A stretch of DNA of 29,377 nt from a virus. The notes below the pieces were generated by a model. That model was not told the DNA's origin and ran no database searches. It saw nothing but the letters and a program-made list of their open reading frames with translations. A program made the position numbers and the translations under genes. Shown here piece after piece: positions 3,820-17,613 of this stretch (positions are counted from its first letter, which is position 1; the number at the start of each line of letters is the position of its first letter). The stretch is from the IMG/VR virus record IMGVR_UViG_3300045988_091431. One strand, written 5' to 3'.

Positions 3820-5327
3820 ACCACAGACACCCGCTTCCTACCAGACCGTTCACGCCGCCTAGCTTTCGCCATCTTCGCACCAAGATACGCCAACGACACA
3901 GCCTCCAACGGCACCTCACTGCCGTCCTTAAACGTCGAGCCCCAGCCCCACGCAGAGCCTTTCTTTTTCTGAACCGCCGACCTCACAGCAATATCCAACA
4001 TGTCACGCCTCGAATCGGCACGAGGATGAGAAACATTCCCAGACCTTACACCTTCCAGGAAGGCCTGACACGCCTCCACATACACCCCAGTATCAGCAAC
4101 CACCACGCCACGACCCGGAACACCACGATCCGTCAACGCCTTCTGCAACAACACCGCACCAGACCCGGCAACCATAATCTTTTCAGTGTCACCCCAACGA
4201 ACCGCCAACCAGTCAGCCAACCGGCCCACACCATCAACAATCGTTCCCGACAGCCCATCAATAACCTCAACATGAACCCCAGCATCAGTCCGGCCGGCAC
4301 CCGCCAACGCGACACGATCCCCAGAACGAGAAAACGAGACACCAAACACTTTACCGCCAACCAGAGCCGCCTCATCCACCGCAGACTGAGCCCACTTATC
4401 CGCAGGAATCACAGACGCAGCAGACTGGCCACGATCCCACCAGCCAAGCCGCTCCCGAGCAAACCCGGCAGCAGACATCGACTCATGCTCATCGCTCACG
4501 GTCCCAAAATTCAGACGACGACCCAACGCCGGATTAGTGTCACCCGCCAACTTCCGCCACTGCCGCGACACATCATCCGGATCAGACTCGTCAGGAATCG
4601 AAAACTCCGTCCACGCAAACCTTTTACCACCCGACAAAGCCTGCCCACGCAAACGCAACACCACAGACCCATCAGCCAACGGCCCCGGCGGCGTGCCAAG
4701 GAAAATCTGCTGCGGATCACCCGAAGGAGCCGCAGACACCGTAGGAAGCAAAGCCTCCAACTGCTCATCCGACAACTCCTGAGCCTCATCACACACCAAA
4801 TCATCAACAGTAAACCCGCGAGCAGAACCACGAGAACGGGCCACAAACTCCACCGAACCCCAACCCGGACAGCCACACTTCTTCTCAAACGTGGCACAAT
4901 CCGGGTGATGCAACACAATAGCCTCCTGGCCATTCGTCGCACGAATCGACTTCACCATACGATACAAGTCAGGAAACTGCCGCTCATTCTCAAAAAACGA
5001 CCTCAACCGCATAAACGCCTTACGAGCCGACTTCAACTCGTGAGCCGTATGCAAAATACGGCGACCCTGAATAGTCGCCTTAAACAACTCCACAATCTCC
5101 AAAATAGCGTTCTTGCCATTCTGGCGAGGCACAAACACCCCACACACACCCGAAGCAAGCCTGCCATTGCCACCGACAGCCAGCCAATCATCCAACACCT
5201 GCTGCTGCCACGGATCAGGCGTCAACCCATACGCACGACCCAACTCCCCAGCATCACCGCCAGCAGACACCGAATACGCCGCAGCCACACGATGACGAGG
5301 AACCTGAGAACCAACAACGCTCGACAT
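3816..5327 (-). CDS. Terminase large subunit (503 aa)
   Basis: ATPase motifs: Walker A-like VPRQNGKNAILE and Walker B-like LVCDEAQEL. C-terminal nuclease-sized domain. The terS stop and terL start overlap (TAATG). Confidence 0.9.
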   Translation of the reverse strand: MSSVVGSQVPRHRVAAAYSVSAGGDAGELGRAYGLTPDPWQQQVLDDWLAVGGNGRLASGVCGVFVPRQNGKNAILEIVELFKATIQGRRILHTAHELKSARKAFMRLRSFFENERQFPDLYRMVKSIRATNGQEAIVLHHPDCATFEKKCGCPGWGSVEFVARSRGSARGFTVDDLVCDEAQELSDEQLEALLPTVSAAPSGDPQQIFLGTPPGPLADGSVVLRLRGQALSGGKRFAWTEFSIPDESDPDDVSRQWRKLAGDTNPALGRRLNFGTVSDEHESMSAAGFARERLGWWDRGQSAASVIPADKWAQSAVDEAALVGGKVFGVSFSRSGDRVALAGAGRTDAGVHVEVIDGLSGTIVDGVGRLADWLAVRWGDTEKIMVAGSGAVLLQKALTDRGVPGRGVVVADTGVYVEACQAFLEGVRSGNVSHPRADSRRDMLDIAVRSAVQKKKGSAWGWGSTFKDGSEVPLEAVSLAYLGAKMAKARRRERSGRKRVSVV

Positions 5328-5635
5328 TAGGCCCCTTTACGCTTCCTATACCGGTCAATCATCGCCACCGCAGAACCCCCACCACGGCCACCAGACGCCA
5401 CATCAACCGAATACCGATCCAACATGCCCATAAAAGCCTTCACATGAGCACGAAGCGAAGCCACCAAATCCGCCCGGCCCTCACGCCACACACAATCATG
5501 AATCACCGCAGCATCCATGAGAAACAACCACTCCTCATCAGACACGTACTGCGCGCGACTATCCTCACCCCACACACGCCACCAACGACGCGTCTCCCCA
5601 CACCACTCACGACTATCAGGAAGCTCAGGCTGCAC
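5327..5635 (-). CDS. Terminase small subunit, start uncertain. The ORF track begins at a GTG at 5698, only 2 nt from the cos end. The most plausible start is the GTG at 5635 (GGTGGTGAG upstream; about 102 aa). The ATG at 5518 would give 63 aa
   Basis: Small basic-tailed ORF (C-terminus RYRKRKGA) between the cos site and terL. Its stop is translationally coupled to the terL ATG. Confidence 0.5.
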   Translation of the reverse strand: MQPELPDSREWCGETRRWWRVWGEDSRAQYVSDEEWLFLMDAAVIHDCVWREGRADLVASLRAHVKAFMGMLDRYSVDVASGGRGGGSAVAMIDRYRKRKGA

Positions 5636-5699
5636 AACACTCACCACCAACACAAAAAGTCGACAAACAGACAAAACCACAAAAGGGAGGTATTTCACT

Positions 5700-5710
5700 A
5701 AGCCGTACGA
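5700..5710. other. Cohesive-end (cos) site. AAGCCGTACGA on the plus strand is the complement of TCGTACGGCTT, which I recall as the 11-nt 3' single-stranded extension of C. acnes phages
   Basis: Exact 11-mer match. The minus strand immediately after it reads AGTGAAATACCTCCC..., matching my recollection of the left-end sequence. It lies directly upstream of terS. Confidence 0.6.
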
Positions 5711-5761
5711 GGTCTTGCACGCCTGTGCAGGGGGTGGTTCCCGTGGGGGTTGGCGGGTTTT

Positions 5762-6064
5762 TCACCATGGAATCAAGGTTTTTGTGGTTTGTTGTTGGAA
5801 TTTGATGTTTGGTTCGCTGCGATTGCCTTTGCTTCTGTTGCATGTTCTGCAGATGATTTGCCCGTTGTCGAGGGTGTTGAGTCCTCCCCTGCTGACGGGT
5901 GTGATGTGGTCGGCTTCGGGGCTGGTTGGAAGGTCGTGTGTGTTCCAGGTGATGGTGGCTCCGCAGAGTGGGCATTCGGTTTGGCCTTGTTGTCGGGCTT
6001 GGGTGATGAGCCTTGCCCGCCAGCGCCGGTGGGCTGATGATGCGGTGCGGTTGGTGTGTGCCAT
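5762..6064 (-). CDS. HNH endonuclease (100 aa)
   Basis: CPLCG ... DHITPVSRGG ... N-x-QIICRTCNRSKG: the two Cys pairs and H-N-N core of an HNH nuclease. ATG at 6064 with AGGAGA/AGGGGA upstream. Co-oriented with cos-terS-terL. Confidence 0.8.
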   Translation of the reverse strand: MAHTNRTASSAHRRWRARLITQARQQGQTECPLCGATITWNTHDLPTSPEADHITPVSRGGLNTLDNGQIICRTCNRSKGNRSEPNIKFQQQTTKTLIPW

Positions 6065-6254
6065 CGCGTCCCCTGATCTCCTATGGCCCCCGTGAGCCTC
6101 TCATTGCCTCTCTAAGGGCTTGGAATCGTCTGGGGGTAGGAATACTCTACCGGTGCCCTGCTATTCGATCCTAGGCCCTGTTTTGTTCGTTTGAGGGGGT
6201 GTTCTGTTTGTGCCGGGGTGTTTGTTTTCTCCACTACCCCCCTGGCATGTGAAA

Positions 6255-6283
6255 AATATCACATCGCCCCCCAGCTGTGTCAA
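6255..6283 (-). promoter_or_regulatory. Candidate sigma-70-type promoter on the minus strand, reading toward HNH, cos and the terminase genes. -35 TTGACA (6283-6278), 17-nt spacer, -10 GATATT (6260-6255)
   Basis: Perfect -35 hexamer and 4/6 -10 hexamer read from the reverse complement of 6255-6283. Confidence 0.3.
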
Positions 6284-6613
6284 AAGAAGAAGGACACGGA
6301 AGAAAAATGGGGGTGGATGGGTGTTCGCGTTTCACAGCTTAGCGCCTAGCGCCTAGCGTTAAAGGACACAGGCTAAGCGGGAACACCTTAAGGTTTTAAA
6401 GTCTTCTACATATAATATACACTTTAAGTCTTACCTCGTGTTAAGGGTTTAAGCGTGACACGCCGTACGCCTTCAGCCGAACACGCTAAGCCTGAAAGGG
6501 GCACGGGTGTAAGAGTGTGGGGAGTGTGCAACCGGGAGCGTGCGACCGGTGGTACACGAGTCACACGGTGAAAGCCCATCAGCGTTGACGGTAAAGGTTC
6601 CTCTTCTCCCCTG

Positions 6614-6668
6614 ATGAAGAAAAGAAGAGAAGAGAGAAAGAACCAAAGAGAGTAGAGAAGTAAAGAAG
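6614..6668 (+). repeat. 55-nt polypurine (AG) tract, preceded by the complementary CT-rich stretch TTCCTCTTCTCCCC (6596-6609)
   Basis: Read directly: atgaagaaaagaagagaagagagaaagaaccaaagagagtagagaagtaaagaag. Confidence 0.8.
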
Positions 6669-6890
6669 TTAACCCCTTAGCTCTTCTAAAACTTTTATAA
6701 CTTATAAGCTTTAAGACTTATAGGTTATAATATTAAAGTTTAAGACTGATGGTTAACTTTAAGTACTTAAGGTCTTTAAGGTCTTATAGTTATTTTAAGT
6801 TTTAAAGTCTTAAACACTGATGTTAAGTTTATATCCTTAAGTGCTTAGCCTTTAAGGTTTTATACTTAACTTAGGTGTTAAGGTCTTTAT

Positions 6891-6924
6891 ACTGATGCTG
6901 AGCCTTGAAGGGCTCAGTGCTAAG
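6891..6924. repeat. Hairpin element copy 1: CTGATG-ctgagcc-ttgaa-gggctcag-TGCTAAG
   Basis: 7-bp GC-rich inverted repeat, flanked by the same CTGATG and GTGCTAAG motifs as copies 2 and 3. Confidence 0.6.
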
Positions 6925-7001
6925 TGTGTAAGCCTTTAAGGTTATTAATTAACTTTAAGTGCTAAGCTCTTAAGTTTACTTAAAGTGTTTAAAGCTTTAA
7001 G

Positions 7002-7038
7002 ACTGATGCCGAGCCCTTGAGGGGGCTCGGTGCTAAGC
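7002..7038. repeat. Hairpin element copy 2: CTGATG-ccgagccc-ttgagg-gggctcgg-TGCTAAG
   Basis: 8-bp perfect GC-rich stem. 7003-7036 is near-identical to 7519-7552. Confidence 0.65.
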
Positions 7039-7519
7039 GTTAAGGTCTTAAGGGCTTAGCGCTAAGCCTTGAAGCTTTAAAGTCTTTGGTAGACTGATGG
7101 ATGTAAGGGTGAAAGCCGCGTCAGCGGATTTCGGCCTTGCGTCCAGCTGGCTACCTGTCCAGCCTATCATACCCCACCTGGGATGAGTCAAACTGGTGGA
7201 TTTGGCTCTATAGGCGGGTTTGAGGGGTGTAAACGGGTGTTTTTGGTAGTAAAGGTCCAAAAATTAAACCTAAACTTTTCCTTAAATTTTCTTAGAGTCT
7301 TGTAACCTTTGAGGGTGGTTAAGACTGAAACCCCTAGTCAGAACAGGTTTCACTCCCGGACAGCTCTCACACTGTACCCTTGTGTCCTTTCCGAACACGC
7401 TAGGCCCATCAGTGCTGATGGTCTTCCCTCAGGCTTTCGAGTACTCGTCGCTAGGGCTCCTCGTACTCTCAAGCCTTCCCTGATGGCGTGTACTCCTTTC
7501 AGGGCTGTGCCTGTTCGGG

Positions 7520-7555
7520 CTGATGCCGAGCCCTTGAGGGGGCTCGGTGCTAACT
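7520..7555. repeat. Hairpin element copy 3: CTGATG-ccgagccc-ttgagg-gggctcgg-TGCTAAC
   Basis: Same stem-loop as copy 2 located ~515 bp away, followed by further GTGCTAAG and CTGATG motifs (7561-7606). Confidence 0.65.
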
Positions 7556-7744
7556 GCTAAGACCATCGGTGCTAAGCGCTAAGACCTTAATGCTTGAAGG
7601 CTGATGCCCCCCTCTTTCTTTTACCGTGTCCTTCTTCCCCCTTAGTATCCCACACTGTCCACATAGTTGAGGCTTAGCTAACCAGGATAGGGGTTGATAA
7701 TCTATGCCGAGATGGCTGATCGTGTATCAGGCTGTGGGAGGCGT

Positions 7745-7778
7745 CTAGAATCGATCAGAATTGCTTGGGGGTATGAAT
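7745..7778 (+). promoter_or_regulatory. CTAGAATCGA box followed by the -10-like TATGAAT (7772-7778). Candidate early promoter or operator 1
   Basis: 10-mer CTAGAATCGA at 7745-7754 recurs at 8053-8062. Each copy lies ~20 nt upstream of a -10-like hexamer. Confidence 0.25.
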
Positions 7779-8052
7779 ACCTAGCCCCCACCCTGCAAGG
7801 CGCTCCTAGGCGTACCCCTGAGGCTTTAAACGGCATTTCTGGGCTACACCCTCCACGCCAGATCGACAGAGTGGCCTTGGGGGTGCACACCATACTAGGC
7901 GAATGTGGCCTATCTCACACAGTATGAGGGTGTGGATTCCATGCCCAGATCTGACACCTCGACCCCCGCCATGAAAGCCAAGGTAGATCTGCCGGGTCAT
8001 CTACCGGACCTGCTATCACCCAGACATACCCCTGAGACGCCCTAGAAGGCCC

Positions 8053-8086
8053 CTAGAATCGACTACCAGGGTCAACCCTGCATAAT
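8053..8086 (+). promoter_or_regulatory. CTAGAATCGA box followed by the -10-like CATAAT (8081-8086). Candidate early promoter or operator 2, ~185 nt upstream of the first early gene
   Basis: Same 10-mer as at 7745. Downstream leader contains ACACTCTAG x2 (8152, 8217) and the palindrome GTGAC-atcc-GTCAC (8134-8147). Confidence 0.25.
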
Positions 8087-8253
8087 CCTACCCCCAGAGG
8101 ATTTGAGGCGCTGAGAGAGGCAATAAAGGCTTAAGTGACATCCGTCACACCCAACACTCTAGCATGAAACGCTCAATCCGAATGAGCGAAGCATTGACTG
8201 TGGGGTCGCAACCTACACACTCTAGAAACCACAACAACCCCCACAACCACCGA

Positions 8254-8276
8254 AAGGAGCACACACACCATGGATG
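8254..8276 (+). promoter_or_regulatory. Start-associated cassette AAGGAGCACACACACC-ATGGATG (copy 1)
   Basis: 23-nt identity with 10112-10134. Confidence 0.6.
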
Positions 8277-8578
8277 GCGCACTCATCACCCCATCCTTCA
8301 CCAGCCTCTACGGGCAGACAGAAATCAACCCACTCCACCCCACACACCTGGTAGGATGTGACATAGGCAACACCCACACGTCTATCATCTGCCGCCTGCA
8401 CCGTGCCAAAGTCGAGGAAGCCGTACGGCTCATCCGGCCCCTGTGGACTGTCACCCTCGACGGTGCCATATACGGACCCCAGGACTGGCAGCCACTCACC
8501 GCGGATGAGGCCGAGGAACTCCACGACATGATCGACACGATCGACGTCGACGCCATCATTGCCGAAGCCACACGATAA
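8270..8578 (+). CDS. Hypothetical early protein (102 aa), paralog of the next gene
   Basis: ATG with AAGGAG 10 nt upstream. Shares ...LDGAIYGPQDWQPLTADEAEEL... with ...SDGTVFSHNEWKPLTGGEATQL... of 8610-8921. Confidence 0.65.
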   Translation: MDGALITPSFTSLYGQTEINPLHPTHLVGCDIGNTHTSIICRLHRAKVEEAVRLIRPLWTVTLDGAIYGPQDWQPLTADEAEELHDMIDTIDVDAIIAEATR

Positions 8579-8609
8579 AAACCATCCACACACCAGAAAG
8601 GAACCCGTC

Positions 8610-8921
8610 ATGCAAAAGATCGCCAACCACTTCACCCAGCTCTACACCCCCGCCAGCTACGACTGCCCCACACCCTTCGACCTGACACGCCTCGAAAACC
8701 TCTCCTGCGACCACATGGATTTTGAGGGCCTCGCCGAAGCCTACCGGCAGAGCGTGGAAGCCGAACTCCACAAGCTGCGCCCCAACACATTCATCGCATC
8801 CGATGGCACCGTGTTCAGCCACAACGAGTGGAAGCCGCTCACCGGCGGGGAAGCCACGCAACTCTACTGGAATGTGAGCCGCATCAATGTTGGCCACCTC
8901 CTCACCCTGTACAGCCGATAA
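8610..8921 (+). CDS. Hypothetical early protein (103 aa), tandem paralog of 8270-8578
   Basis: ATG at 8610 with AAAGGAAC upstream (the ORF track's earlier TTG at 8559 is unlikely). Sequence similarity to the upstream gene. Confidence 0.65.
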   Translation: MQKIANHFTQLYTPASYDCPTPFDLTRLENLSCDHMDFEGLAEAYRQSVEAELHKLRPNTFIASDGTVFSHNEWKPLTGGEATQLYWNVSRINVGHLLTLYSR

Positions 8922-12398: not shown

Positions 12399-13352
12399 AT
12401 GCTCTCTCTCCAACGATCCTTCGAGAGAGCCTCCCAAACAGCCGCCGAACTGCCCCGCATACCACAACTAGAACCCCTCTACCGCAACCTGGACATGCAC
12501 ATTCACAAAGGGGATCTCGTCATGATCGCGGGGCGGTCCGGCAGCCAAAAATCCGGGCTAGCCATGTTCATCACCGCCATGCTCAACCAGCCCGCCCTCT
12601 ACATATCAGGGGACATGACACCCTGGGAGGCCTCCACACGAATCATCTCACTCAACACCCAACACACCACCGCCCAGATACAACAAAACATCGACGACTA
12701 CGGGCCAGAATACTATCGAGACAGCATCCACCACGGCCAACACATCACATTCTCATTCCAGTCACCCATCACATGGACAGACATCACCATGGAACTGCAA
12801 GCCTACATGGAAATGTGGAACACCTTCCCACCACTCATTGTTATCGACAATCTGATGGACATTCAAGACTGCGAATCCGACTATCAGGCCCAGCAAGAAG
12901 CCATGCAATGGATCACAGCATTAGGCAGGGACACGGGCTCCACCATTATTGTCACACACCACGCAACCGACAAAACCGGCTCCGACATAGAACACCCCCC
13001 GGCTAGGCGGGAAATCAAAAACGGCCTCTCCGAAAAACCACAACTCATATTGGGAGTCTCCCTGTATGGTGGCGAAGATAACGGCAACGGGCTCACCATC
13101 CCCGCCGAGGCACGCATCGCCGTACTCAAACAGCGCACCGGCAAATCCAGCCCAGACGGAACACGATACGAAAGACTCAGAGCCTACCCCGAATACACAT
13201 TCTTCGGACCACTCGCCGAAAAACAGCCATGGAACATGACCGAACACCACAAAGGACTATCATGTCGACACAACAGTCACGCAACCGCCGGGCCGGCGCA
13301 GAATGGGAAACACGACTCCTCCACCAGCTACGCGACACCGGCTATGATATAG
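12399..13352 (+). CDS. DnaB-like replicative helicase, RecA-fold ATPase domain only (317 aa)
   Basis: Walker A GRSGSQKSG and Walker B LIVIDNLMD. The last ~30 codons overlap the next gene out of frame. Confidence 0.75.
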   Translation: MLSLQRSFERASQTAAELPRIPQLEPLYRNLDMHIHKGDLVMIAGRSGSQKSGLAMFITAMLNQPALYISGDMTPWEASTRIISLNTQHTTAQIQQNIDDYGPEYYRDSIHHGQHITFSFQSPITWTDITMELQAYMEMWNTFPPLIVIDNLMDIQDCESDYQAQQEAMQWITALGRDTGSTIIVTHHATDKTGSDIEHPPARREIKNGLSEKPQLILGVSLYGGEDNGNGLTIPAEARIAVLKQRTGKSSPDGTRYERLRAYPEYTFFGPLAEKQPWNMTEHHKGLSCRHNSHATAGPAQNGKHDSSTSYATPAMI

Positions 13353-13618: not shown

Positions 13619-13979
13619 CACCCGCCGCCTCCTCGACACCTACCAGATACGGTACAATCCATCCAAGAACGAGCAACACATCCTCTGCCCGTTCCACGAC
13701 GACCACCAGCCCTCCATGAGCATCAACCTCGACAAGGGCGTATGGTACTGCCACACATGCGGCATCGGAGGAGGACTCCACAAACTGAAACAACAATTAG
13801 AGAAAGAAAACCCTAATGTACGACTCACTACAACCCTACAACATTGCGGAACGCCGCCGAATCCAGAAAGCCTCAGCCCTCTACGAAACCCACCTCGAAA
13901 ACATACTCGACCTGCTCTCAGCAAGAGGCATCAGCGAAGAAACAGCCCGGCTCCACCACCTTGGATACATCGACAATGA
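13578..13979 (+). CDS. DNA primase N-terminal zinc-binding domain ORF (CHC2 finger: CPFHDDHQP...WYCHTCGIGGG), frame 0. Only the first ~75 codons look protein-like; the ORF runs to 13979 as low-complexity sequence
   Basis: Classic DnaG zinc-ribbon motif. The downstream Toprim domain is in the +1 frame. Confidence 0.6.
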   Translation: MWYQPSTSSSHTSDTRRLLDTYQIRYNPSKNEQHILCPFHDDHQPSMSINLDKGVWYCHTCGIGGGLHKLKQQLEKENPNVRLTTTLQHCGTPPNPESLSPLRNPPRKHTRPALSKRHQRRNSPAPPPWIHRQ

Positions 13980-14487
13980 CCCCATACCAGGCCACGAAGA
14001 CTACAACCAGTGCATCACCATCCCCTACATGTACCCCGTCTGGGGGGAGCCAGCCGAAATACGAAAAATGCGTTTCCGCTGCTCACTCCAGCATGATTGC
14101 AAAACCCACAACCACCCCAAATATCTAACCCCGGCAGGAGACACAGGCTCCATCTACAACATGGCCGCCATGGCCAACCCGGCAGCCGAAATGCACATTT
14201 GCGAAGGCGAATTCGACTCCATGATCCTCGAACAATGCGGATGGTCGGCCGTAGCACTACCCGGCGCAACCTCGTGGCAAACTTTCTGGACCAAATTTTT
14301 TGAAGGCTACGACCGCATCTACATCTGGTCCGACCCAGACAAAGCAGGCGACCAGATGGCACAAACCCTCCAGACGGCACTCCCCCAAGCCATACACGTA
14401 CCCCTCACTGTCGGGGATGTCACAGACACCTACCTGAAAACAGGCAAAACAGGGTTGACACAAGCACTAGACACAGTGCTACAATAA
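13816..14487 (+). CDS. DNA primase catalytic (Toprim) domain ORF (223 aa), frame +1 relative to the zinc-finger ORF
   Basis: ICEGEFDSM and SDPDKAGD Toprim motifs. ATG at 13816 with a GAGAAAG purine stretch upstream. Confidence 0.75.
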   Translation: MYDSLQPYNIAERRRIQKASALYETHLENILDLLSARGISEETARLHHLGYIDNDPIPGHEDYNQCITIPYMYPVWGEPAEIRKMRFRCSLQHDCKTHNHPKYLTPAGDTGSIYNMAAMANPAAEMHICEGEFDSMILEQCGWSAVALPGATSWQTFWTKFFEGYDRIYIWSDPDKAGDQMAQTLQTALPQAIHVPLTVGDVTDTYLKTGKTGLTQALDTVLQ

Positions 14488-17214: not shown

Positions 17215-17613
17215 GTGAACCGAACCTACACCACCGCCGACATCATCCAAGCCGCCCAATGGATCTGGAACGGAGGCCCATGGAAACCCTCCGTGGAGCC
17301 GGGCATGCCACCACCACCAACCGCGCCACAACACCACGGCAACAACATCGTTACCATGATCGATCTACAGCTAGCCATCGACGACTACACCCTCACCTGC
17401 CAGCCATCCAAACAGCGAAAACATTTAGCTAGGCTGGCAGCATTCCGGGAAGTATACGGGTATGACCAAACCTATTCGGTGGCAGCCCAACGACTCGGAG
17501 TCACCCGGCAGACGGTGAAACAGTGGGCAGACCAAACACTCATCACCCTAACAGGCTACGCAAACAGTAGATACTATCCAGACGATAGCGACGACAGCAC
17601 AAGGATGGGATAA
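17215..17613 (+). CDS. HTH protein with a sigma-70 region-4-like C-terminus (132 aa)
   Basis: LARLAAFREVYGYDQTYSVAAQRLGVTRQTVKQWADQTLITL resembles sigma region 4.2 / HTH. GTG start with AGGGGA upstream. Confidence 0.55.
   Translation: MNRTYTTADIIQAAQWIWNGGPWKPSVEPGMPPPPTAPQHHGNNIVTMIDLQLAIDDYTLTCQPSKQRKHLARLAAFREVYGYDQTYSVAAQRLGVTRQTVKQWADQTLITLTGYANSRYYPDDSDDSTRMG

Follow-up and report, generated by a model that had tools for sequence, protein, structure and literature searches.

An AT-rich repeat island in the gene-free control region of a Pahexavirus genome: a candidate replication origin

A gene-free control region beside the cohesive end

The window analysed here, virus record IMGVR_UViG_3300045988_091431 (29,377 nucleotides), is a whole Pahexavirus genome in permuted and reverse-complemented form, and comparison with relatives matches it at this locus to the final ~2.3 kb of canonical genomes. 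The cohesive end (cos) was located with the overhang sequence taken from PMC13022010 (Table 1). Close to it lies a gene-free stretch of ~2.2 kb (6065–8269) between the HNH endonuclease gene, which forms its left boundary, and the early/replication genes, whose first conserved open reading frame (ORF) spans 8270–8578; the island under study (6340–7110) lies inside this stretch. The flanking units are divergent, with the HNH gene, cos and the structural genes running one way and the early/replication genes the other. The island is upstream of both divergent sets of promoter-like modules and so is not obviously a leader or coding segment. The module upstream of the HNH gene is also conserved in the Cutibacterium avidum phage, and its other two copies are oppositely oriented. 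The distance from island to HNH gene is always about 920 bp in deposited genomes and IMG/VR contigs, and the annotated gene-free gap of SKKY corresponds to ~6235–7322 of the window.

Both the locus and the hypothesis of an origin are already known and have been in the literature since 2012, and our analysis opens no new question about them. Marinelli et al. (2012, mBio) described the same region as noncoding over >1 kb, with GC below 25%, conserved low-complexity runs and a GC-skew switch, which in their words "suggests an origin of replication" (PMC3448167), and Brüggemann & Lood (2013) described a 1.4 kb noncoding region with a regulatory function (PMC3652107). The island occupies the position of the published region, near the right genome end, flanked by the rightmost gene (HNH) and by early genes transcribed leftward, and shares with it the GC drop below 25–30%, the conserved low-complexity runs, the change of skew sign and the standing of most variable part of the genome; we see no difference in kind. 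The island is the AT-rich heart of a ~2.2-kb gene-free control region present in every C. acnes phage. To the published account we add motif statistics, a division into conserved core and variable array, hairpin and promoter-like modules, a critique of the skew polarity and a comparison with the C. avidum phage. C. acnes phages persist as unintegrated episomes and are candidate agents for phage therapy of acne and for DNA delivery to skin bacteria; knowledge of where replication starts, or of how the carrier state is controlled, would bear on vector building and on the prediction of pseudolysogeny.

The first-pass annotation had called the island free of genes, and this is borne out: it holds no conserved ORF, no tRNA (ARAGORN) and no Rfam match, a search of Rfam 15 at a permissive E-value returning two chance-level matches only (E about 0.9). 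Its ORFs are all ≤57 aa, are intact in 7–21 of 78 genomes and, in contrast to the HNH gene and gp44, carry no codon-position pattern. Five candidate hidden small genes, at 6424–6579 (−), 6473–6646 (−), 6112–6234 (−, gp46-like), 7309–7560 (+, gp45-like) and 7694–7927 (+), were likewise rejected: none has a coding substitution pattern, intact copies are found in only 5–22 of the 78 genomes, relatives carry frame-breaking deletions, and the gp45-like ORF is wholly absent from PAS50. A blastn search of PLSDB found no match that would indicate similarity to a plasmid origin. Nor is the block an artefact of assembly, as the same island occurs in 228–232 deposited phage genomes and 77 IMG/VR contigs.

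Composition, short motifs and hairpins

GC content is 0.409 across 6340–7110 against 0.544 for the whole window. This interval had been described as low-GC throughout, which is true of 6600–7000 (0.29–0.30) but not of 6340–6600, where GC is 0.52. The lowest value, 0.23, falls in the 100-bp window 6693–6792, and 6693–6892 comprises the least stable duplex of the genome (z = 5.3 for the first hundred base pairs and 4.5 for the second), as is characteristic of an AT-rich unwinding element. The minimum of GC in 200-bp windows (0.18–0.28) lies at the same position in 78 of 78 genomes. The region also contains both the most purine-rich and the most pyrimidine-rich tract of the genome.

Short motifs are strongly over-represented. 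Relative to 2000 dinucleotide-preserving shuffles of the region, we counted 20 copies of TTAAG (4.0 ± 1.9 expected), 8 of CTTTAAG (0.38), 5 of ACTGATG (0.01), 4 of AAGGTCTT (0.04) and 3 of GTGCTAAG (0.04), and for all five the observed count was reached in 0 of the 2000 shuffles; the abundance of TTAAG and CTTTAAG noted on first reading is thus far above chance. The segment 5700–8222 holds 22 of the 25 TTAAG, all 8 CTTTAAG and 5 of the 6 ACTGATG in the whole window. The motifs are also strand-specific, with 20 TTAAG against 8 CTTAA in the region, and per-genome means among relatives of 19.6 TTAAG against 9.3 CTTAA and of 4.2 ACTGATG against 1.0 for its complement. Repeat units measure 5–9 bp and are irregularly spaced (peaks at 8, 15, 19, 27–29 and 35 bp), and ACTGATG punctuates the array at 6745, 6816, 6891, 7002 and 7093, recurring each 70–110 bp.

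TRF finds two tandem repeats, the TAGCGCC repeat of Table 1, around the tandem reported at 6343–6358, and TTAAGGTCT ×2.1 at 6767–6785, overlapping the duplication placed at 6771–6789. Several other repeats in the first-pass annotation required adjustment. The 14-mer CTTTAAGACTGATG, said to occur twice, has a single copy (6995), and the two copies (6739 and 6996) are of the 13-mer TTTAAGACTGATG; GTGCTAAG, credited with at least five copies, has four (6917, 6959, 7030 and ~7568, the last outside the region). Of the listed TTAAGAC/GTCTTAA sites, TTAAGAC was located at 6711, 6740, 6997 and ~7320 and GTCTTAA at 6807 and 7045, but the entry at 6783 has no match.

Longer repeats frame these motifs. 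A contiguous second copy of the split "box A" was found at 7391–7422 by the repeat search, and the two 31-nt inverted-repeat arms bracket the core noncoding region, the left arm ranking with the genome's most strand-asymmetric windows of 50 nt. We considered and rejected a transposon or MITE with these arms as its ends: by inspection the flanks show no target-site duplication, and every Pahexavirus relative examined has the segment.

Table 1 Features of the control region and its borders (window coordinates)
Feature	Position	Strand	Basis or remark
cos, 13-nt cohesive end	5700–5712		Exact match to AAGCCGTACGAGG; canonical genome ends and sharp GC-skew switch here
HNH endonuclease gene	5762–6064	−	Pfam HNH E = 2e-11; HNH annotation in relatives; coding substitution pattern
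Promoter-like module CTAGrATCGA...CCTACCCCCAGA...GAGAGAGGCAAT, upstream of HNH	6085–6174	−	One of three copies
31-nt long-range inverted repeat, left arm	6286–6316		Purine-rich; 81% complementary to 7607–7637
Tandem TAGCGCC ×2.7	6340–6358	+	TRF
Promoter-like site, perfect −10 TATAAT at 6411–6416	6388–6416	+	Putative; −35 weak, variable
Split "box A", CCGAACACGCTAAGCC (6477–6492) ... GCCCATCAGCGTTGACGGT (6574–6592)	6477–6592	+	Repeat search; variants in relatives
Pyrimidine arm (6596–6611) and 53-nt polypurine tract (6616–6668)	6596–6668	+	Tract 92% purine, most purine-rich of the genome
Near-invariant AT-rich core	6670–6760	+	Identity 0.95–0.98, ≤2% gaps; contains TTTAAGACTGATGG
Variable array, strand-specific TTAAG / CTTTAAG / AAGGTCTT	6761–7002	+	Indel hotspot
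GC-rich hairpin, CTGAGCC...GGCTCAG type	6897–6918		Folding z = −3.7; flanks ACTGATG and TGCTAAG
Y-shaped composite palindrome	6982–7087		z = −6.8, RNA or DNA, both strands
Hairpin module copy 1, 83-nt direct repeat	7003–7085	+	Repeat search
Hairpin module copy 2, 83-nt direct repeat	7520–7602	+	Hairpin at 7525–7548
31-nt long-range inverted repeat, right arm	7607–7637		Most pyrimidine-rich stretch of the genome
Two promoter-like modules, ~7745–7800 and 8053–8125	7745–8125	+	Face early/replication genes; right boundary of control region

The hairpins are maintained by paired changes. The one at 6897–6918 differs from other copies by a compensatory change of C-G to T-A, and the same double change keeps the stem paired elsewhere, 23 copies reading CTGAGCC...GGCTCAG, ~135 reading CCGAGCC...GGCTCGG and only 2 being mixed. 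Downstream of the hairpins the sequence reads TGCTAAG on the + strand and CATCAG on the − strand. In the Y-shaped palindrome a long AT-rich stem closes a hairpin (7008–7031) and a second palindrome (7047–7074); the first is almost invariant, and the second keeps its GCTAAG/CTTAGC stem with loops that differ among relatives. We therefore rejected a single conserved RNA structure for 6982–7087, since relatives fold in several ways and only the first hairpin and the GCTAAG/CTTAGC stem persist.

An invariant core beside a variable array

Identity, motif counts and ORF integrity were compared across 78 genomes of relatives. The 165-bp core at 6596–6760 is 95–98% identical among them, a conservation comparable to or above that of most of the adjacent HNH coding sequence, and deletions almost never touch it. 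Within it, the polypurine tract (6616–6668) is 95–98% conserved and is present in the C. avidum phage also, and the AT-rich part (6670–6760) overlaps the least stable duplex of the genome, which makes it a candidate DNA-unwinding element; one relative only has a deletion there (23 bp). The TATAAT at 6411–6416 is identical in 97% of the 78 genomes, with the polypurine tract ~200 nt downstream.

The array next to this core varies in length and copy number. The equivalent of 6596–7110 measures 328–659 bp in relatives, many independent indels of 15–207 bp and unit-like insertions fall in the array, and up to 207 bp is missing from viable relatives. Comparison with relatives had been proposed as a check on motif copy number, which does vary, from 8 to 29 TTAAG per genome. 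The opposite outcome, an island absent or unrepeated in close relatives, was not seen: every relative has the island, and every genome at least 8 TTAAG.

The C. avidum phage, with a helicase at 70% identity, has a gene-free stretch of 1.5 kb with matching architecture, including the same polypurine tract beside a core of 27% GC and hairpin modules in direct repeat, and its short motifs are different from those of the C. acnes phage array. A kept layout with different motifs is expected if the sites co-evolve with a binding protein, and this comparison faintly suggests that the array may serve as binding sites for a phage helix-turn-helix (HTH) protein. Searches for more distant relatives returned Pahexavirus only from IMG/VR (with the C. 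avidum phage helicase), none from GTDB genomes, and generic HNH genes only from a metagenome scan with the C. avidum phage HNH.

A candidate replication origin and its alternatives

As the best reading of these features we infer, tentatively and a little short of thinking it probable, that the island is the phage replication origin. The first-pass annotation had suggested an origin of iteron type. What stands of this is an unstable duplex beside strand-specific repeats and hairpins, between divergent units and in every relative; on the other side, the repeats are not classical iterons, an initiator gene could not be recognised, there is no enrichment of DnaA boxes and the polarity of the skew fits awkwardly. 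Since its genes include those for a helicase, a primase and exonucleases but none for a polymerase, the phage probably directs the host's replication machinery to a specific site. A scan of 40 ORFs (Pfam, with PHROGs for ten right-arm ORFs) revealed no recognisable initiator or origin-binding protein. DnaA boxes (TTGTCCACA-like, ≤1 mismatch) number 3 in the whole genome against 6.1 expected, with none in 6340–7110 and one at 7655. A literature search for experimental origin mapping, a description of iterons or a transcriptome in these phages found none.

Known origins resemble the island in part. Classical iterons, such as those of lambda ori, pSC101, R6K and P1 oriR, are 17–22 bp long, regularly phased, fixed in number and adjoin or lie inside the initiator gene. 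The island shares with these plasmid and lambdoid phage origins its oriented short direct repeats beside the least stable duplex, but its units are 5–9 bp, irregular and variable in number (8–29 copies), with no direct repeats of 17–22 bp in regular helical phasing and no recognised initiator gene. In the origins of phage P4 and the staphylococcal pathogenicity islands, repeats of 6–8 bp in both orientations flank an AT-rich stretch and are bound by an initiator of primase/helicase type. Very short repeats in two orientations around an AT-rich core, and an own helicase and primase with no polymerase, are common to those systems and to this phage; here, by contrast, the repeats lie mostly on one side of the core, and an origin-binding domain in the helicase or primase would be purely hypothetical.

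We infer protein binding, unwinding and priming at the island from these features, and the process could run as follows. The duplex would open at the 165-bp core (6596–6760), which consists of a pyrimidine/purine hairpin, the 53-nt polypurine tract and a ~90-bp segment of ~20% GC, the part of the genome that melts most readily. The flanking copy-variable array (TTAAG-type motifs and ACTGATG) and the GC-rich hairpins would bind a phage or host protein, and this protein may help to load the phage DnaB-like helicase (12399–13352) and Toprim primase (13816–14487). More speculatively, a transcript from the TATAAT at 6411 might carry the purine tract as RNA, and a stable hybrid of purine RNA and pyrimidine DNA (an R-loop) bordering the melting region might prime or open the origin.

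Transcription-primed (R-loop) origins are known from ColE1 (RNA II), T7 (the primary origin) and T4 (oriF/oriG). Along the + strand the order here is similar, a conserved −10 (6411–6416) aimed at the purine tract (6616–6668) and then an easily melted AT segment (6670–6892), and the C. avidum phage has the same order; against this, the −35 is weak and variable, and the likeness is putative. That the core common to the C. acnes and C. avidum phages could be an R-loop-type origin, with a purine-rich RNA from the TATAAT at 6411 opening the neighbouring AT-rich DNA to the phage helicase and primase, and with the lineage-specific arrays of short repeats and hairpins as binding sites for a phage protein, is to our minds a doubtful proposition. 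Were it true, ~0.8 kb of the region and a few phage genes would constitute a portable Cutibacterium replicon.

GC skew has been the published argument for an origin here. In the window, skew is positive only from 5700 to ~7250; the switch at cos (5700) is sharp, and the second change, gradual and inside the region, is diffuse (~7250–7900) and lies rightward of the island. The usual polarity rule takes the leading strand to be G-rich, which points to cos as the origin-like point and to ~7255 as the terminus-like one. The noncoding region of the C. avidum phage has no skew switch. The GC-skew case for an origin is weaker than published, and the published argument alone does not put the origin in the island.

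Among the alternatives to an origin, a platform for transcription control is unlikely but the one that survives best. In such a platform, AT-rich and probably bent DNA would bind an Lsr2-like host silencer or a phage regulator, either to set the balance of early and late expression or to silence the genome while the phage is in its carrier (pseudolysogenic) state. Xenogeneic silencers (Lsr2/CgpS) prefer low-GC islands of this kind, and here an island of 20–30% GC lies in a phage of 54% GC whose host has about 60% (literature value). Divergent promoter-like modules on both sides of the island, conserved −10-like hexamers within it and a sigma-r4/HTH-like phage protein (17215–17613) would also fit, but the modules are 170–1600 bp away, and a need for AT-richness in general would not account for 165 bp of near-invariant sequence. 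Operator-like palindromes are poorly conserved; CCATCAG-NN-CTGATGG at 7406, which we rejected as a palindromic operator, is imperfect in most relatives.

It is improbable, in our estimate, that the variable half (6761–7002) has no sequence-specific function and is low-complexity DNA prone to slippage and recombination beside a functional core, either tolerated or selected for AT-richness only. Its ~two-fold length variation, many independent indels (15–207 bp), irregular spacing and entirely different motif family in the C. avidum phage are what such DNA would show, but the strong strand specificity (19.6 TTAAG against 9.3 CTTAA per genome), the recurrence of ACTGATG each 70–110 bp and an array that is never wholly lost (at least 8 TTAAG in every genome) argue against it.

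We give somewhat less credence still to one or more noncoding RNAs, for example one transcribed from near 6424 as far as hairpin 6897 or 7008, where the hairpins would serve as actinobacterial-type terminators that lack a U-tract. The conserved TATAAT at 6411, the strongly negative folding z-scores over 6815–7164 with much lower energies on the + strand, and the compensatory change that keeps hairpin stems would agree with this; on the other hand, the significance of the folds is the same for either strand and for DNA, as it would be for plain palindromes, relatives do not preserve the larger Y-shaped fold as a single structure, Rfam gave no match, a consensus scan of 6065–8400 found no canonical intrinsic terminator (GC-rich stem and T-run), and the literature search turned up no transcriptome for these phages.

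The skew pattern raises a further, very unlikely alternative, that replication forks set out from the vicinity of cos and converge on the repeat and hairpin region, which would then be a replication terminus, a fork barrier or a site of concatemer processing. Cumulative GC skew does have a local minimum at cos (5700) and a local maximum at ~7255, just right of the island, but the skew, which is very large, may have a cause unrelated to fork direction, the pattern is absent in the C. avidum relative, no gene for a terminator protein is recognised, and a terminus would not be expected to carry an AT-rich unwinding element.

Least credible of all is the partition role that the first-pass annotation had also proposed, a centromere-like site through which carrier cells would retain the unintegrated phage genome as they divide. 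Centromere sites typically contain short-repeat arrays, and the island resembles the plasmid and phage partition sites P1 or N15 parS and F sopC in having clustered short repeats on an extrachromosomal replicon; the phages are also reported to persist as episomes and have no integrase. Yet ParA/ParB, ParM/ParR and TubZ/TubR families are absent from the 40 ORFs scanned, the host-type parS (TGTTTCACGTGAAACA, a general consensus from which that of C. acnes may differ) has no match at ≤3 mismatches, the carrier state is reported to be unstable, and Marinelli et al. (2012) report that the genomes have no partitioning systems and that attempts to isolate stable lysogens did not succeed (PMC3448167).

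For the candidate origin, our analysis gives a sharper experimental target in the 165-bp invariant core, as against the dispensable array and the 7040–7538 segment. PAS50 lacks this last segment, a loss consistent with recombination between the two 83-nt hairpin module copies, and on the evidence of its genome sequence 7040–7538 is dispensable.

Genome identity and the gene-free stretch

Megablast of window positions 5600-8000 matched, with identities of 80-95%, 232 Propionibacterium/Cutibacterium acnes phage records; in those with the canonical orientation, the match lies on the minus strand and reaches the final base of the genome. Positions 5700-5712 are an exact match to the 13-nt cohesive end (cos) reported for C. 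acnes phages. The window is thus the whole genome of a Pahexavirus in circularly permuted, reverse-complemented form; its canonical right end lies ~0.65-1.4 kb from the low-GC, repeat-rich island at 6340-7110.

No conserved ORF was found between 6065 and 8269 in 78 genomes (the window and 77 IMG/VR relatives); therefore, this stretch of ~2.2 kb is gene-free, which extends the first-pass annotation of an island without coding sequence. Candidate ORFs within it, including gp45 and gp46 of some records, were rejected as genes: they are intact in only 5-22 of the 78 genomes, carry frame-breaking deletions in several relatives, and show no excess of third-position substitutions, unlike the HNH gene and gp44. 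No tRNA or Rfam family matched the region. The stretch contains three copies of a promoter-like module (CTAGrATCGA ... TAwT-CCTACCCCCAGA ... GAGAGAGGCAAT), with the island upstream of each, and a long inverted repeat encloses much of it (see table). The gp46-annotated ORF of some genomes overlaps the left module (6085-6174), and the left inverted-repeat arm adjoins a promoter-like site, TTGACA-17-TGtGATATT (6283 to 6255, minus strand), whose -10 reads GATCTT in most relatives.

Among neighboring genes, the first two early ORFs (8270-8578 and 8559-8921, plus strand) both match phrog_919 (PHROG) and look like tandem paralogues; only 50 of the 78 genomes have the first one intact. The 132-aa protein at 17215-17613 (plus strand), first annotated as HTH, shows weak similarity to sigma-70 region 4 and to a sigma-factor PHROG, and could direct phage-specific promoters.

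Features of the noncoding region and its surroundings (window coordinates unless stated)
Feature	Position	Strand	Remarks
Small terminase gene	5327-5698	-	
HNH endonuclease gene	5762-6064	-	
Promoter-like module	6174 to 6085	-	faces HNH, cos, structural genes
Inverted repeat, 31 nt	6286-6316 (purine-rich); 7607-7637 (pyrimidine-rich)		encloses 1.3 kb of noncoding region
Pyrimidine arm, short	within 6596-6760		
Purine tract, 53 nt	6616-6668		92% purine; most purine-rich stretch of the genome
AT-rich segment, ~90 bp	within 6596-6760		roughly 20% GC
Hairpins with mirror-form loops	6897-6918; 7008-7031; 7525-7548		plus homologues in relatives L004-L083
Block CTGTCCAGCCTATCATA ... TTTGGCTCTATAGGCGGGTT	7155-7224; 7277-7295		31850-31782; 31739-31721 in C. 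avidum phage CA1NRNZ (L084)
Promoter-like module	about 7745-7800	+	faces early genes
Promoter-like module	8053-8125	+	faces early genes
Early/replication genes	from 8270 onward	+	

Conserved core, variable array and hairpin modules

The island has a GC content of 0.41, falling to 0.29-0.30 in 6600-7000, compared with 0.54 for the whole window. This bears out the AT-richness noted in the first-pass annotation, except that the left part (6340-6600) is not AT-rich. Relative to 2000 dinucleotide-preserving shuffles of the island region, TTAAG (20 observed vs. 4.0 +/- 1.9 expected), CTTTAAG (8 vs. 0.38), ACTGATG (5 vs. 0.01), AAGGTCTT (4 vs. 0.04) and GTGCTAAG (3 vs. 0.04) are enriched to counts equalled in 0/2000 shuffles, and the noncoding stretch holds 22/25 TTAAG, 8/8 CTTTAAG and 5/6 ACTGATG of the whole genome. 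The motifs are strand-specific, with ACTGATG on the plus strand in every case at intervals of 70-110 bp. TTAAG spacing peaks at 8, 15, 19, 27-29 and 35 bp and is therefore not phased like regular iterons. Small tandem repeats, also anticipated, were found by TRF at 6340-6358 and 6767-6785. Other details required correction: a 14-mer thought to occur twice has one copy (a 13-mer is what occurs twice), GTGCTAAG was found four times rather than at least five, and a few motif coordinates were off by 1-3 bases.

An assembly artefact is ruled out, since a GC trough of 0.18-0.28 lies at equal distance from the HNH gene in 77/77 IMG/VR relatives, together with the motifs, and the 165-bp core (6596-6760) is present in 228 GenBank phage records. 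Motif copy number varies among the 77 relatives (TTAAG 8-29 and ACTGATG 2-6 per genome).

A MAFFT alignment of the window with these relatives resolves the anatomy of the island. Positions 6400-6760 are 93-98% identical across genomes, similar to or above most of the HNH coding sequence, and deletions are almost never seen within the core. A perfect TATAAT at 6411-6416, oriented toward the purine tract, is kept in 97% of genomes, and no 100-bp duplexes in the genome are less stable than those at 6693-6792 and 6793-6892. The adjoining array (6761-7002) is an indel hotspot: insertions and deletions of 15-207 bp are composed of its own TTAAG-type units, and the segment corresponding to 6596-7110 measures 328-659 bp among genomes.

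A hairpin unit, ACTGATG-C[CT]GAGCC(C)-loop-(G)GGCTC[GA]G-TGCTAAG, occurs 163 times in the 78 genomes, with window copies at 6891, 7002 and 7520. A matched C-G to T-A stem change in 23 copies, with mixed stems in only two, probably goes back to one inherited event. Among genomes, the loop has two mirror-image forms, CTTGAGG/CCTCAAG (CCCTTGAGGG, CCCTCAAGGG), which look like flip-flop inversion of the palindrome center. These GC-rich hairpins are stable on either strand, and none is followed by a T-run. The second module lies within a composite palindrome with a Y shape (6982-7087), which scores z = -6.8 whether folded as RNA or as DNA and for both strands, and which is not preserved as one structure in relatives.

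Two hairpin modules form 83-nt direct repeats (7003-7085 and 7520-7602), between which falls the natural ~500-bp noncoding deletion of phage PAS50 (Lood & Collin 2011). PAS50 lacks 7040-7538, as would be expected from recombination between the repeats, and this 0.5 kb is therefore dispensable. The deletion also takes out the gp45-annotated ORF and a block conserved even in a C. avidum phage, so that block is conserved yet dispensable for plaque formation.

Comparison with a Cutibacterium avidum phage

Of 233 phage records carrying a close helicase homologue, phage CA1NRNZ (PV441878.1) is the lone outlier, with 70.5% identity. Its layout matches that of C. acnes phages, with a 1.5-kb gene-free gap (GC 0.42, trough 0.275) between early genes and a methylase-plus-HNH pair. 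Common to both are promoter-like modules (30864-30930 in CA1NRNZ), a 70-nt block equivalent to window 7155-7224, and a polypurine tract, GAAAGwACCAAAGA...GTAAAGAGTTAA, of which CA1NRNZ has direct and inverted copies on either side of a ~120-bp AT core. In contrast, TTAAG and CTGATG are not enriched in its noncoding gap (3 and 0 copies), which has its own repeats (GTTAT x12, GTTAATC x4, TAGTA x9) and its own GC-rich hairpin, GCCGCCCC-TTAA-GGGCGGCGG, in two copies within a ~70-nt direct repeat. Thus, both kinds of phage keep the architecture and the sequence of the purine tract, but each lineage has short repeats of its own.

The inverted polypurine copies (31310-31269 and 31112-31145) enclose a core of 27% GC with TAGTA-type repeats and form a potential cruciform around a melting region. 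The noncoding, GC-normal block shared by the two groups is 79% identical (E = 2e-10), and a small stem-loop inside it appears to be retained via different flanking pairs.

Proposed replication origin and alternative readings

The locus has already been described in print, and the origin reading already proposed (Marinelli et al. 2012, PMC3448167); we found no experimental mapping of origin, transcripts or repeats for C. acnes phages in the literature. To that description we add the distinction between an invariant core and an array that is dispensable and varies in copy number, the hairpin modules together with their recombination, the promoter-like modules that face in divergent directions, the retention of architecture, though not of short motifs, in the C. 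avidum phage, and a caveat on GC skew.

A replication origin remains the best-supported reading, plausible on circumstantial evidence. The duplex would melt at the conserved purine tract and AT core, and the repeat/hairpin array would provide accessory binding sites for a candidate phage or host protein; more speculatively, TATAAT at 6411 might supply an R-loop-type origin. The phage encodes a DnaB-like helicase, a Toprim primase and nucleases, and no polymerase. Counting against an origin, no initiator was recognized among 40 ORFs scanned, DnaA boxes are not enriched, and the repeats are unlike classical iterons. GC skew also counts against it: the skew switches sharply exactly at cos (5700; -0.43 to +0.27) and changes again only gradually, over about 7250-7900, right of the island; by the usual skew rule, cos would be the origin-like and about 7255 the terminus-like point. 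CA1NRNZ has no switch in its noncoding region. The published skew argument for an origin therefore needs a caveat.

Among the rivals, the island may instead be a transcription-control or silencer platform, and its variable half may be neutral low-complexity DNA. The island could also be an ncRNA, or a terminus or fork barrier. Weakest, and unsupported, is a partition site, suggested alongside an origin in the first-pass annotation: no par genes were recognized among the 40 ORFs scanned, no consensus parS matched, and stable lysogens could not be isolated (Marinelli et al. 2012, PMC3448167).

Skew on the window plus strand is very strong, about -0.3 to -0.45 in both gene arms, and that of the HNH gene is opposite to every other gene on its strand. 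In the C. avidum phage, skew switches at the junction of the two gene arms.
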